From a virus (lineage: Duplodnaviria > Caudoviricetes): a DNA stretch of 24,988 nucleotides. The DNA lies in IMG/VR virus record IMGVR_UViG_3300025084_000208, positions 1 to 24,988 of that record; one strand, given 5' to 3'. A program made the translations under genes and the position numbers. The notes under the pieces are model-generated. The model saw nothing but the letters and a program-made list of their open reading frames with translations, was not told where the DNA came from and did no database searches. Below, piece after piece: positions 1,017 to 14,398 of this stretch. The number at the start of each line of letters is the position of its first letter. The stretch's first letter is position 1.

Positions 1017-1421
1017 TTAGTCAGCTTCGAAATCGTCTGCGCCAGTGAAGTCATCAGCTGTACCAGCTTCTTCAATTTCAACTTTAGCATCGTCTACTGC
1101 ATCATCAAACGACCAAGCAATCTTTGTGCCTGAGTCAAGTGTTACCATACGTCCTGCAATTTTAACTACTTGACGAGCTGTTCCGCCATCGTCTTTAACT
1201 GTAATAGTCATATCGCCTACTGCTAAAGTACCTTGTGCTTTATCAACTAAAGTACAATCCATTGTGTTAGTACCATCGTAGCAACGGAACTTCTTAGATC
1301 CTAATTGCTTTACAATCCAGCCGTTTGCTTCTGCTTCGCCTGTAGCACGATAACGTACTTTGATTTCGTTGCCACCTGCTGTAGGCTCTCCGAAAAATCT
1401 TTTATTAATTGGTCTTCCCAT
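1017..1421 (-). CDS. Hypothetical late/virion protein, 134 aa (MGRPINKRFFG...)
   Basis: Strong SD (TAGGAGAAAACAAATG), upstream late-promoter-like GATAAATA, own terminator, acidic C-terminus. Confidence 0.8.
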   Translation of the reverse strand: MGRPINKRFFGEPTAGGNEIKVRYRATGEAEANGWIVKQLGSKKFRCYDGTNTMDCTLVDKAQGTLAVGDMTITVKDDGGTARQVVKIAGRMVTLDSGTKIAWSFDDAVDDAKVEIEEAGTADDFTGADDFEAD

Positions 1422-1435
1422 TTGTTTTCTCCTAT

Positions 1436-1512
1436 TTAAGTAGTCCTATGCCCGTTCTATGGGCTACGCTGTGGGTACAGCATAAGTCTGCTTTGCAGCA
1501 CACTATCTGACA
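1436..1512 (-). promoter_or_regulatory. Structured 5' leader (three adjacent hairpins) of the 134-aa gene
   Basis: Minus strand: CTGC-AAA-GCAG (1488-1498), TATGCTGT-ACCC-ACAGCGTA (1465-1484, one G-U) and GCCC-ATAGAAC-GGGC (1450-1464). GC-rich in an AT-rich genome, between the promoter motif and the SD. Confidence 0.55.
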
Positions 1513-1516
1513 CAAG

Positions 1517-1524
1517 TATTTATC
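1517..1524 (-). promoter_or_regulatory. T4-type late promoter variant (GATAAATA)
   Basis: 7/8 match to the gp55 consensus TATAAATA, just after a terminator and upstream of a late-type gene. Confidence 0.6.
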
Positions 1525-1536
1525 AAAGGTTTAAGA

Positions 1537-1576
1537 GAAAAGAAAAAAGGCCTACCGCATTAGTGGGTAGACCTTT
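1537..1576 (-). terminator. Intrinsic terminator closing the non-coding unit
   Basis: Minus strand AAAGGTCTACC-CACTAATGC-GGTAGGCCTTT (11 bp with one G-U) continuing as TTTCTTTT. Confidence 0.85.
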
Positions 1577-1790
1577 AATAATAAAGTGATAGGTTGGACT
1601 CTGTGAATACCAACAATCCTTCTGTAGAGCCACGCTCAAATCCAGAAACTTCATATTAAACAGTTACGTTTAAAAATACAACTTCGTATCTCTACGCTCT
1701 TGCATTGCCACCACAGCTATGAATCAAGTTACGACCTCTACGGATCGCCATTCCTTGCACTATCTAACTTAGGATATCTCCTAACTTATG
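1540..1790 (-). ncRNA. Candidate stand-alone ~250 nt non-coding RNA, family unknown
   Basis: Bounded by a near-consensus sigma70 promoter and a strong terminator, with no SD-led ORF. Hairpins TTAGGA-GATA-TCCTAA, CGATC-CGTAGA-GGTCG, TTAAAC-GTAACT-GTTTAA and GTTGG...CCAAC; possible 5'/3' closure GATAG/CTATC. Confidence 0.6.
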
Positions 1791-12330: not shown

Positions 12331-13174
12331 TTGCTTTCTTAACTTTTATTAATTCTTGCTTACCTCTTGGATCTTTTACAAGATCAGCAAACGCCTTTTT
12401 CATGTCAGCACTAGCATTTGATTTAAGACTTTCTAATAATGCATCAGATTCTTCGTCAATTGATTCTTCAACACCGCAATCTTTTTCTATTAGAGTAGCT
12501 ATAGCATTTGCAATAAATGTTTGTAAAAACTGCTTTACACTATCACGTTTTAAAAGATAGTCCATACCCCAACTGATGAGATATGTTGAACCGGCTGCAA
12601 CAGCAGCAAGAAACCATCCTGCACCAGGGAGTGCCATAAATGGTGTAGCAAGCAATCTTATAATTGGAAGAGCAAGGCGGCCACCAAGCATTGTTCCAAG
12701 AAAATTACCAACTGTTAACCCAATATCTTTACCTAAATTTCGTCTTGCCTGAGCAACTATTAGTACAGTTCTGTCACAGTTATTATCTGTTAGTGCTGTT
12801 CTATATGTATCAATTCGGTTATGTGTTGTTATTGCACCGAAACCTAGCTGAAATAAACCATATAACCACAGATTTGCTTTACCAGCACGTTTCAGCATTT
12901 TAAGGTTTTTTTTCTTTATTTCATCTTCATTTGGTTTATTTTGGGCAGGCGTATTTCTGTTATTTCTGTTGTTACTATCGTCAGGAGTTTGTGCAGGAGT
13001 ACGTCTTGCTCTCTCTTGATCTCTAAATTCTTCAGCCGATCCTGCATCTGGAAAAGTTTTTAAAGTTCTATTTCCATCTGTATCAATTACATTAAACCCA
13101 GCAGGCTTACCGTCAGAACCTAGTGTAGCAGATGGCGTTATCTCTATAGCTTCAAATATTTCATAGACCTTCAT
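12311..13174 (-). CDS. Hypothetical late protein with hydrophobic helices, possible internal head protein, 287 aa
   Basis: SD AAGGAT; late motif CATAAATA at 13202-13209; N-terminus MKVYEIFEA; hydrophobic segments LWLYGLFQLGFGAI and LPIIRLLATPFMALPGAGWFLAAVAAG. Confidence 0.75.
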   Translation of the reverse strand: MKVYEIFEAIEITPSATLGSDGKPAGFNVIDTDGNRTLKTFPDAGSAEEFRDQERARRTPAQTPDDSNNRNNRNTPAQNKPNEDEIKKKNLKMLKRAGKANLWLYGLFQLGFGAITTHNRIDTYRTALTDNNCDRTVLIVAQARRNLGKDIGLTVGNFLGTMLGGRLALPIIRLLATPFMALPGAGWFLAAVAAGSTYLISWGMDYLLKRDSVKQFLQTFIANAIATLIEKDCGVEESIDEESDALLESLKSNASADMKKAFADLVKDPRGKQELIKVKKAIKSKAS

Positions 13175-13201
13175 GATTTATCCTTAATAGTATGTTATGT
13201 A

Positions 13202-13209
13202 TATTTATG
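13202..13209 (-). promoter_or_regulatory. Late promoter variant CATAAATA
   Basis: 7/8 match to TATAAATA, 27 nt upstream of the ATG at 13174. Confidence 0.6.
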
Positions 13210-13299
13210 TATTAACTTCGTTAATACAAGTTTTCGCTATCGCTCAAACTATACACTTCGTTTATGTATGATAGAAATAAATGAATATAAAGATATAAA

Positions 13300-13719
13300 T
13301 GCATTATTACGAATGTAATAATGTTTAAGTTTCATGTAGATTGTTTCAGTCAGACGGAACCTGTTACGGTCCCATCTAATCTCAAAATGCGCTTCATGTG
13401 AGTCTGCACCAGCCGAGACATTGGAAGTAGGTAATTGTTTATACACAAAGTACAATGGGCTCTGACCTTTCCCAACCTACGTCGACATTGTGTTGCTTAT
13501 AATATACATTAATCTAGTTAATGTACAGTTTAAGTAACATTATTCCCTCGCTTCGTTCCTAGTGCTAAAGGGTTTTTATGTACTGTGTTGTGTTTTTCGA
13601 CTGCTAACATTCAACCTATACCAATCCAACGCCTTATTACCAGACGCAGCTCAGCATGTTACGTGTGCTCCTATACGGTAGCTTTTTCCACAGCGGTAAA
13701 TTAATCTGGCCCGCCAACC
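13300..13719 (-). ncRNA. Candidate large structured non-coding RNA directly downstream of the GIY-YIG gene (3' boundary uncertain, between ~13210 and ~13330)
   Basis: No credible ORF in ~500 nt of an otherwise tightly packed genome. Stems: TTAGATGGGACC-GTAACA-GGTTCCGTCTGA (13350-13379, 12 bp, three G-U on minus), GCGTCT/AGGCGT (13629-13647, two G-U), GTAGGT/ACCTAC (13475-13480 with 13427-13432) and a long AU hairpin at 13491-13539. Confidence 0.6.
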
Positions 13720-14169
13720 TTATGTGTTAGATTGTTTTGCCTGGATGTGATGTTCTAGCAATGCCTGTTTGAGTTTGTCTGATCCGCCTACTCTAACATT
13801 AATGATACCATTATAGTATTCATCAGTTTCAAGTACACGCCTATCAAACTGTTCTCTTGCCTCTATGTAGGACATTTCGCCCCTACCTTTACATAGGTAT
13901 AATATTTCTCTTGTAAACTTGTCTTCGCCTAGTGCAGCTACGTCTGCGTTTAGTCTATCACTGGATCCCCAGTAAGTACGCCAATCGCTTTCTTTAGTGC
14001 CGCGCCTTTTGTTTTTCTTGCCTTTGAGTGGTGGCTTAGTAGTTTTAAATTTTGCTAGTTTTTTGCCTATGTATTTTTGATCTGTAGTGGTATTTGTGAT
14101 AAGATAAACAAAGCCTTCGTACTCGTCTGGTATTTCGTCAATTTGTTTACCGTTATATGTCCACTGCAT
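13720..14169 (-). CDS. GIY-YIG family endonuclease, 149 aa (start corrected from 14280)
   Basis: GFVYLITN...KYIGKK (GIY-YIG hairpin), WRTYWGSS, FTREIL, E in SYIEAREQ and YYN; basic insert KFKTTKPPLKGKKNKRRGTK. The longer start overlaps the upstream gene. Confidence 0.85.
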   Translation of the reverse strand: MQWTYNGKQIDEIPDEYEGFVYLITNTTTDQKYIGKKLAKFKTTKPPLKGKKNKRRGTKESDWRTYWGSSDRLNADVAALGEDKFTREILYLCKGRGEMSYIEAREQFDRRVLETDEYYNGIINVRVGGSDKLKQALLEHHIQAKQSNT

Positions 14170-14200: not shown

Positions 14201-14398
14201 CTATTTTCTGGTTGTTCTTGTAGTGTTATGATGAACATGTATTTGTTCTGCACGAATCTTTGCCAATGCACGTATTTCACGTAAACATTTTCTTACTGCA
14301 CGATGTGTTCTTACACTATTTTTAGCTACAAATTTTTCGTTTGCTTTAAAATAATCAAGATATGCATTTACAAGAGAATCATGTATATCGTTAGGCAT
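14201..14398 (-). CDS. Small basic helical protein, 65 aa, possibly DNA-binding
   Basis: ATG overlaps the gp46 stop (TAATG coupling); R/K-rich amphipathic helix RAVRKCLREIRALAKIR. Confidence 0.7.
   Translation of the reverse strand: MPNDIHDSLVNAYLDYFKANEKFVAKNSVRTHRAVRKCLREIRALAKIRAEQIHVHHNTTRTTRK

Follow-up and report, generated by a model that had tools for sequence, protein, structure and literature searches.

A covarying multi-pseudoknot element behind a SegE-like GIY-YIG gene of T4-like phages, a candidate replication pre-primer

Does the lone GIY-YIG nuclease of a marine phage work together with the large structured tract that lies directly behind its gene, or does the tract serve a purpose of its own? 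The locus lies in a window of 24,988 nucleotides (IMG/VR record IMGVR_UViG_3300025084_000208), the whole stretch of DNA that was analysed. The window covers part of the genome of a T4-like phage, with portal-like and major-capsid-like genes (named from their translations), and it also encodes an SbcC/gp46-like gene, a late sigma factor and a baseplate hub gene. The records that carry the window sequence are marine. An earlier note, made from the sequence alone, proposed that nuclease and tract form a ribonucleoprotein, with an independent large phage RNA as the fallback. The following features border the tract.

14201-14398, minus strand: 65-aa ORF between the gp46-like gene and the GIY-YIG gene.
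13720-14169, minus strand: SegE-like GIY-YIG protein of 149 aa (PF19835 SegE_GIY-YIG, E 2.8e-35; phrog_447).
13202-13207, minus strand: TAAATA in the sequence, a motif like a T4 late promoter, belonging to the next gene and outside the RNA.

The reading of TAAATA at 13207-13202 follows the T4 late promoter consensus. The next gene 3' of the tract begins at 13174. The tract itself has no credible ORF, as had been noticed; the sole candidate is a 68-aa frame with a TTG start (13455-13249), where homologs show many frame-breaking indels. Likewise, no terminator-like site was found in the tract. The further argument that genes elsewhere in the window overlap or abut has an exception in a second long non-coding gap at 1422-2082. 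At 1419-1784 (minus strand), between the capsid gene and a 134-aa gene, Rfam places a manA-like RNA (46.5 bits, under the cut-off of 55.2 bits; E 3.5e-9) in tandem with a freshwater-2 RNA (72.2 bits).

The tract folds better than shuffled sequences on the minus strand (z -2.96, with 2/100 shuffles as good) but not on the plus strand (z -0.14). When alignment columns of 86 homologs were ranked by covariation in an unbiased way, stacked base-pairing columns came out on top, and a 68-pair model was drawn from these columns. Across 58 deduplicated homologs, 98.5% of the cells in the model are paired, compared with 29-43% when the partners are slid by 1-3 columns. The homolog alignment contains a covarying structure, with two-sided change in 28 of the 68 pairs. 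On the tree, 134 compensatory events were counted against a null mean of 3.4 and a null maximum of 28, a large margin for a model that was partly derived from sequences overlapping the test set and is favoured by that overlap. The modelled pairs contain 362 G-U and 8 A-C cells over the 58 homologs, which fixes the minus strand as the sense strand and bears out the earlier assignment from G-U pairs. The tract at 13742-13331 (minus strand) is a real, conserved, covarying multi-pseudoknot fold of ~410 nt. Its parts are as follows.

13331-13742, minus strand: structured RNA body of ~410 nt, defined by covariation, with a 68-pair model and four predicted pseudoknots.
13604-13730, minus strand: first pseudoknot (PK1), 13730-13725 (the last nuclease codons) with 13604-13609, the loop of the hairpin 13616-13599.
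13450-13583, minus strand: second pseudoknot (PK2), long-range, 13583-13579 with 13450-13454; three of its five pairs have 16-18 two-sided changes.
13545-13572, minus strand: hairpin with an invariant loop and a covarying stem.
13559-13556 with 13423-13426, minus strand: third pseudoknot (PK3), predicted, formed by loop bases and invariant in type A.
13489-13541, minus strand: variable self-paired hairpin, ~10 to >100 nt in homologs and not a guide.
13412-13486, minus strand: core helices 13486-13482/13412-13416 and 13480-13475/13427-13432, enclosing a near-invariant purine-rich segment.
13348-13467, minus strand: fourth pseudoknot (PK4), predicted, 13467-13462 with 13348-13353, paired in 58/58 sequences.
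13354-13375, minus strand: final hairpin, between two direct repeats, with eight conserved pairs and a variable loop.

PK1 spans the helices 13714-13693, 13691-13663, 13682-13667 and 13657-13618, and all six of its pairs are kept in 58/58 sequences, three of them with two-sided change. Because 13730-13725 pairs with 13604-13609 with compensatory changes, the fold starts ~20 nt before the nuclease stop. The tract had been taken to begin at that stop (13720), which is correct for the non-coding part but not for the fold, whose start lies within the last nuclease codons. In 55/84 loci the first helix overlaps the end of the GIY-YIG ORF, and where the nuclease gene ends earlier the bases of this helix persist 3' of the stop. 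PK3 shows matching changes in two loci (L398 and L401, read by eye). PK4 has one position that is G-U or G-C (42/16) and zero two-sided change. PK1 and PK2 covary, whereas PK3 and PK4, which are invariant or nearly so in type A, are predictions.

The smaller pairings proposed before the homologs were aligned have mixed fates. The repeats ACATGAA and CAATGTC and the three copies of AGGTTG are present as described. The hairpins at 13629-13647 and 13491-13539 exist as stems, but they are variable and replaceable. In the 12-bp hairpin at 13350-13379 the inner 8 bp are paired in 55-58/58 sequences, but the outer four in only 33-54/58, and these outer pairs compete with the invariant pseudoknot 13467-13462/13348-13353. 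The pairing of ACAATG with CATTGT can form in 31-58/58 sequences per position, but its bases have better-kept partners elsewhere. The pairing of CCAGAT with GTCTGG is not conserved (10-37/58 paired per position).

It is likely that the fold acts as RNA. The alternative is that single-stranded DNA adopts the fold, which would then be a packaging signal or a complex single-strand origin. Mini-hairpins of a DNA type flank the fold and also occur within it (0.79 per kb), and in two small phages the element is directly upstream of the terminase genes. Yet several pairs are kept as G-U in most sequences (53-54/58 at two positions), the fold has four pseudoknots, a dedicated promoter is occasionally present, and a related motif has been rated probably RNA (Weinberg et al., PMC2864571, Table 1), so that a DNA fold is highly improbable. 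Among assembled contigs of 8 runs, some from several RNA libraries cover the tract as well as the neighbouring genes, a coverage that does not bear on expression, strand or ends, and the contigs of these runs contain no joint matching an excision between the repeats. About a dozen contigs (L001-L080) break off at one shared position in the RNA, 135-150 nt past the nuclease stop; these shared ends are probably assembly breaks at a block common to many co-occurring phages.

The GIY-YIG protein belongs to a family with relatives in 768 annotated phage records. The family is widely named 'NAD synthetase' in phrog_447 and in GenBank records, which contradicts the Pfam assignment. An active GIY-YIG endonuclease is expected to have a catalytic set of Tyr, Tyr, Arg, Glu and Asn. 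Residues Y22, Y33, E103 and N120 are invariant, and E106 is nearly so; the position expected to hold the catalytic Arg by I-TevI spacing is Asp62. A sequence search with the protein matched no solved structure. In an AlphaFold2 model (mean pLDDT 91) the basic segment is a beta-hairpin with strands 40-45 and 55-60. The gene was found in 31/31 close relatives located via the neighbouring 65-aa ORF and, for this reason, behaves as a resident and not as an optional homing element, in this clade at least; none of these 31 close relatives has an empty, gene-less site. The 65-aa ORF and the GIY-YIG domain are fused, through differing linkers, in five database proteins of 221-224 aa (P0012, P0016, P0034, P0035, P0046), which may be natural fusions, products of recoding or assembly errors.

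Linkage of the RNA to this gene is strong and not obligate. In three overlapping sets of loci collected by motif first, a GIY-YIG gene lies upstream in 85/87, 92/94 and 71/74 loci with enough flank, after 33, 14 and 46 loci were left out as too short. This amounts to ~97% of informative loci, over 51-99% protein identity. The same type of RNA also occurs in four contexts without a nearby GIY-YIG gene: two different small phages (L109 and L116), a second site in a 300-kb phage that is ~180 kb from the GIY-YIG gene (L248), and a site upstream of a clpP-like gene (L493 and L500). A profile of 60 members of the GIY-YIG family found no homolog in these four contexts, and one of the nuclease-free small phages has no GIY-YIG homolog in a record that is 85% complete. 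Where gene and RNA are neighbours, they are separated by >150 nt in 11/84 anchored loci, often with an ORF between them. In L093, L097 and L100 a ~100-aa ORF that overlaps the nuclease stop lies between nuclease and RNA, ~240-580 nt upstream of the core motif.

The protein is also found alone. Seventeen Melnitz-type loci, with nucleases 66-72% identical, have no RNA detectable by type-A profiles; they are the 20 'no gp46' loci minus L349, L370 and L375, which carry diverged RNA. Among 11 deduplicated representatives, other subtype profiles and the hairpin motif were negative, and 7 were also negative with a covariance model. The nucleases of these loci share the invariant residues and the basic insert. 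Apart from these, 28 syntenic loci are missed by the type-A profile, and all 19 that were read by eye carry diverged versions of the element. The diverged elements have other 5' domains and cores and the same 3' layout, which consists of a repeat, a hairpin, a short pairing strand and a repeat. In the jumbo phage G001, a diverged copy lies 1.1 kb downstream of the GIY-YIG gene, behind an inserted ORF. G001 has two element subtypes, at ~76.3-76.7 kb and at 255.8-256.3 kb, which differ in their repeat version and are each followed by a hairpin of their own.

A complex of RNA and GIY-YIG protein, in which the RNA would scaffold, aim or inhibit the nuclease, or in which the nuclease would be an optional helper that nicks the R-loop or displaced strand, is consistent with the linkage, with the overlap of the first helix and the ORF end, and with the basic beta-hairpin predicted in the protein model. 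In one of the nuclease-free small phages, an ORF ~1.5 kb upstream weakly resembles HNH (E 7e-4, below the cut-off). Nevertheless, the four GIY-free contexts, six Polynucleobacter-1 loci that also lack a GIY-YIG gene, the insertions in 11/84 loci, and the recurrence of the same protein features in 17 RNA-less Melnitz-type loci make such a particle quite unlikely. The guide-like segment that such a system might have is absent; the variable parts are self-paired stems, with no long unpaired variable stretch. RNA types are furthermore mixed on the protein tree, though only 7/89 of its branches are well supported and ~11 RNA-bearing loci are mislabelled 'none', so that no firm conclusion is drawn from it. 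The locus resembles HEARO/OMEGA loci in that a nuclease gene adjoins a large structured RNA. Unlike those, its nuclease is GIY-YIG (PF19835) and not HNH/RuvC, RNA and protein each occur alone (in four contexts and 17 loci, respectively), no guide segment is present, and neither empty sites (31/31 close relatives carry the gene) nor transposon ends were seen. The GIY-YIG protein is probably a conserved neighbour of the RNA element, not its partner. The fallback of an independent large phage RNA agrees with the covarying, RNA-like nature of the element.

What such an RNA might do is suggested by its 3' end and by the DNA that follows.

13393-13399, minus strand: direct repeat copy 1, whose proposed role is invasion of the template strand at copy 2.
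13331-13337, minus strand: direct repeat copy 2, at the end of the conserved body, the proposed start of a persistent hybrid.
13251-13330, minus strand: AT-rich tract, a candidate unwinding element.
13229-13250, minus strand: hairpin with the DNA mini-hairpin GCGATAGC (13243-13236), a candidate primosome or primase site on the displaced strand (PMC13037366).
13208-13228, minus strand: second hairpin, with a C-GAA-G triloop (a DNA-type loop).

The two 7-nt repeats are identical in 115/117 type-A loci, though eight different 7-mers occur; six further type-A loci without an anchor were left out of this count. Both copies have changed in 23 type-A loci, and one copy in two. Copy 1 changes 19 times on the tree; 16 of these changes share a branch with a change in copy 2, and 14 of them go to the same base. 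Among 32 loci picked by hand from the repeat listing there are 20 repeat versions, and 27 of the pairs are identical. The copies lie 51-67 nt apart, and they change together even among phages whose nucleases are >90% identical. Self-pairing of the repeats as a dyad was ruled out, since many variants are not self-complementary. An exact complement of the repeat within the RNA was found in 1/32 of the hand-picked loci. The template DNA strand is the only complement common to all variants and, because it is always complementary, the site that copy 1 of the RNA invades is suggested to be the template strand of copy 2.

Past copy 2, the next 50 nt have a mean AT content of 75%, compared with 56% in the body (123 loci; the body, not other intergenic tracts, is the reference). 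A hairpin motif follows within 300 nt on the same strand in 93/104 type-A loci, and on the opposite strand in 3, with a background of 0.003 per 300 nt for a pattern that was designed post hoc, after these loci and ColE1 had been viewed. The motif is missing after 11/104 type-A loci and after type C, most of type D, and the L116 and L493/L500 copies. The loops of the downstream hairpins are mostly GTTA, GATA or GTAA, and the second hairpin has a C-GNA-G triloop in 66/110 loci. Mini-hairpins number 5.7 per kb in the 150 nt past the RNA versus a background of 0.23 per kb (~25 times the flank density). DNA mini-hairpins, whose stability in DNA far exceeds that in RNA, are found at the origins of G4, St-1 and alpha3 (PMC13037366). 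RNA, repeats, AT tract and hairpin stay together in the relocated jumbo-phage copy and in Polynucleobacter integrative elements.

The element could be read as a cis-regulatory 3' element, or as a site at which a dimeric phage or host protein binds both repeats. It would then control where the gp46-operon transcript terminates or how stable it is, or how the following gene is transcribed late. Such a role would suit its fixed place, which closes the gp47-gp46-GIY block and precedes a late-type promoter, and the Polynucleobacter-1 motif was scored as probably cis-regulatory (PMC2864571, Table 1). However, the flanking genes differ completely between contexts, and a fixed protein reader would not easily allow the repeats to change together at >90% nuclease identity. 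A regulatory site of either kind is very unlikely.

By analogy with ColE1 RNA II, the fold at 13742-13331 may instead be a cis-acting DNA-replication pre-primer that works at its own locus, as an R-loop origin, independently of the nuclease; this is the best of the readings, at about even odds. Transcription would read through from the gp46-operon, or start at a local promoter where one is present. The RNA would fold co-transcriptionally, and the last pseudoknot would close just before repeat copy 2. RNA copy 1 would pair with the template strand at copy 2 and seed a persistent R-loop, a pairing suggested alongside the observed co-change of the copies. The displaced strand would expose the DNA mini-hairpins ~80-120 nt downstream, whose motif and strand are observed, and these could load primase or a primosome.

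Support for the pre-primer reading comes from the covariation, the co-change of the repeats, the AT tract, the same-strand hairpins and the joint movement of these modules. It also comes from a small phage that has the element and no recognisable replication gene. The 25.6-kb record of this phage and an overlapping contig close the gene circle at a terminase protein. None of its 38 ORFs matched a replication gene, the matches being to virion, packaging and unrelated proteins, with several ORFs unannotated that could be initiators. Against the pre-primer reading, the invariant unpaired bases exceed the obvious needs of a primer, linkage to GIY-YIG reaches ~97% of informative loci, and T4-like phages have a replisome of their own. 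In two large phage records, codon-position skews do not switch at the element; genes in these records are mostly on one strand.

The likeness to ColE1 extends to several parts. The hairpin motif has a single match in the 6.6-kb ColE1 record, at 1332, on the same strand as the RNA II region and downstream of it; this match is probably pas-BL/ssiA. ColE1 (L411) has G-runs at 929-934 and 1176-1181, one inside the RNA and one just before its end, in the manner of the element's repeats, and the pairing model for these G-runs is like that proposed here. The G-runs are ~245 nt apart, whereas the repeats are freely varying mixed-sequence 7-mers ~60 nt apart. Seven profiles and one covariance model gave no match to the ColE1 RNA II region. 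The element occurs in phages and integrative elements and has no identified RNA I or Rop, while RNA II belongs to plasmids. In size the element is similar to other long structured RNAs of this kind, ColE1 RNA II at ~550 nt and that of pB1067 at at least 465 nt (PMC5043065, PMC3035462). ColE1 exposes ssiA downstream (PMC3167613), and replication of ColE1 and MRB plasmids from RNAs of this kind needs no initiator (PMC5043065, PMC3035462, PMC5703827, PMC6380287). T4 origins work via transcript R-loops in AT-rich elements; oriF and oriG, like the element, have a transcript followed by an AT-rich tract in a T4-like genome (PMC3016281). The minimal T4 origins, in contrast, are ~100 bp and form an R-loop without a specific sequence, whereas the element places a 410-nt knotted RNA and co-changing repeats before the tract.

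The knotted core, with its many invariant unpaired purines, is also what would be expected of a free, trans-acting large phage RNA or ribozyme, a scaffold, multimer or catalyst in the manner of GOLLD, ROOL and OLE, cut from the operon transcript. The repeats would then act as a pair of docking or substrate sites, and the hairpins downstream would form an element of their own. Swappable 5' domains, peripheral stems that vary, the presence of two unlike copies in a single jumbo phage and a sigma70-like promoter of its own in a few loci are consistent with this, as is the general likeness to GOLLD, ROOL and OLE, which are large, multi-pseudoknot and phage-associated. Such an RNA is unlikely, given that the repeats have no complement inside the RNA (exact in 1/32 loci), that no terminator was found, and that the AT tract and DNA-type hairpins travel along on the same strand at a nearly fixed distance. 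Rfam gave no match to any of these three families, and the co-changing repeats and the module of DNA-type hairpins set the element apart from them.

The element appears to have a distant relative in Rfam. Rfam found nothing in the tract, and RF01718 (Polynucleobacter-1; gathering threshold 37 bits) gave no match in 13150-13800 at E up to 10. However, diverged RNAs at the same gp46-GIY-YIG locus (L363, L365 and L382) score 63-108 bits on RF01718, within their first 145 nt. The description of the RNA as undescribed therefore holds for the window, which fails the RF01718 model, but not for its same-locus relatives. The type-A covariance model finds the 3' module in 3/3 RF01718-positive RNAs (E 8e-4 to 0.014, rough E-values), and a profile of the RF01718-positive RNAs matches the window (E 3e-5) with no decoy match. 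Seven Melnitz-type control loci gave no 3'-module match. The window's 3' module thus appears to be distantly related to RNAs with a Polynucleobacter-1 5' part, by matches that are weak and position-correct.

Six loci in bacterial genomes score 75-104 bits on RF01718, and none has a GIY-YIG gene. Four that are long enough have the same 3' layout and a downstream hairpin, and two adjoin integrase and AAA genes. These chromosomal copies are linked to the others via the type-C profile only (E 3e-6 to 7e-3), not by the type-A model. In Polynucleobacter integrative elements (L406:3865-4050, L410:5991-6161, L409), small ORFs lie next to DUF6641, integrase and AAA genes, and their first residues resemble those of genes 3' of the RNA in T4-like phages. 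These integrative elements are possibly phage satellites; no plasmid match was found for the Polynucleobacter element. The longer alignment rows of Polynucleobacter-1 (RF01718; Weinberg et al. 2010, PMC2864571) show the downstream core of the window. RF01718 itself is 141 nt of the 5' domain only, and the window has another domain in its place. The full ~400-nt element, the repeats and the hairpins are absent from the RF01718 model, and the available text of Weinberg et al. assigns no function to the motif, which its Table 1 rates as probably RNA and probably cis-regulatory (PMC2864571).

Other families were sought without success. Rfam gave nothing on 12 diverged loci at E up to 0.5, the window has no tRNA or tmRNA, and blastn of the tract against annotated phages and plasmids returned short chance matches only. 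Other pattern scans gave no matches, or chance ones inside genes. A group I intron was rejected, with no Rfam match and with flanking genes that are whole and variable, and readings as group I P7, RNase P or group II domain 5 were dropped on consensus features. A template RNA of a retron or DRT-type reverse transcriptase was also rejected, with PF00078 in 0/5 phage records (46-95% complete) and a control positive in 3/14. An exact-motif full-text search of the literature found no paper, and the available part of the Minerva preprint does not cover the element. The element may be among the candidates of Fremin et al. 2023 (PMC10690425), whose supplements are partly searchable. The RNA family is otherwise largely undescribed in the searchable literature and databases.

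It is conceivable, though somewhat short of an even chance, that the element represents an independent family of RNA-primed replicons, the third alongside those of ColE1 and MRB. It would be a mobile, pseudoknotted RNA of ~400 nt that includes Polynucleobacter-1 as one of its 5' variants, with a freely reprogrammable 7-nt repeat that clamps its own template. Replication would start in this way in marine T4-like phages, which are abundant, in small phages that lack an initiator, and in integrative elements of chromosomes. If the pre-primer reading is correct, an orphan RNA motif of 2010 gains a function and a full-length form, and replication origins are marked in a group of uncultured phages that is very common and has no known origin. 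Reviews describe the trigger for the persistent hybrid at ColE1 as still speculative (PMC5043065) and the rules for R-loops at T4 origins as not known (PMC3016281). The ~20 natural repeat variants that change in pairs bear on this question of the R-loop trigger. If the function differs, what is left is a large knotted RNA that is widespread and has an unusual signature of co-changing repeats.

Some minor features were seen at individual loci. Sigma70-like promoter boxes lie between the upstream gene and the RNA in L121, L154, L344-type loci and L116, and in L121 and L154 a duplicated gene tail lies beside them; a strict sigma70-like pattern was found in 1/71 loci tested. The small phage G004 encodes a 96-aa SET-domain protein (L429:1729-2016; Pfam E 8e-10). 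Several tandem copies of AGGCA occur just upstream of the RNA in L143, L384, L394, L493 and L500, and the motif is kept once in the window, at 13742-13738.
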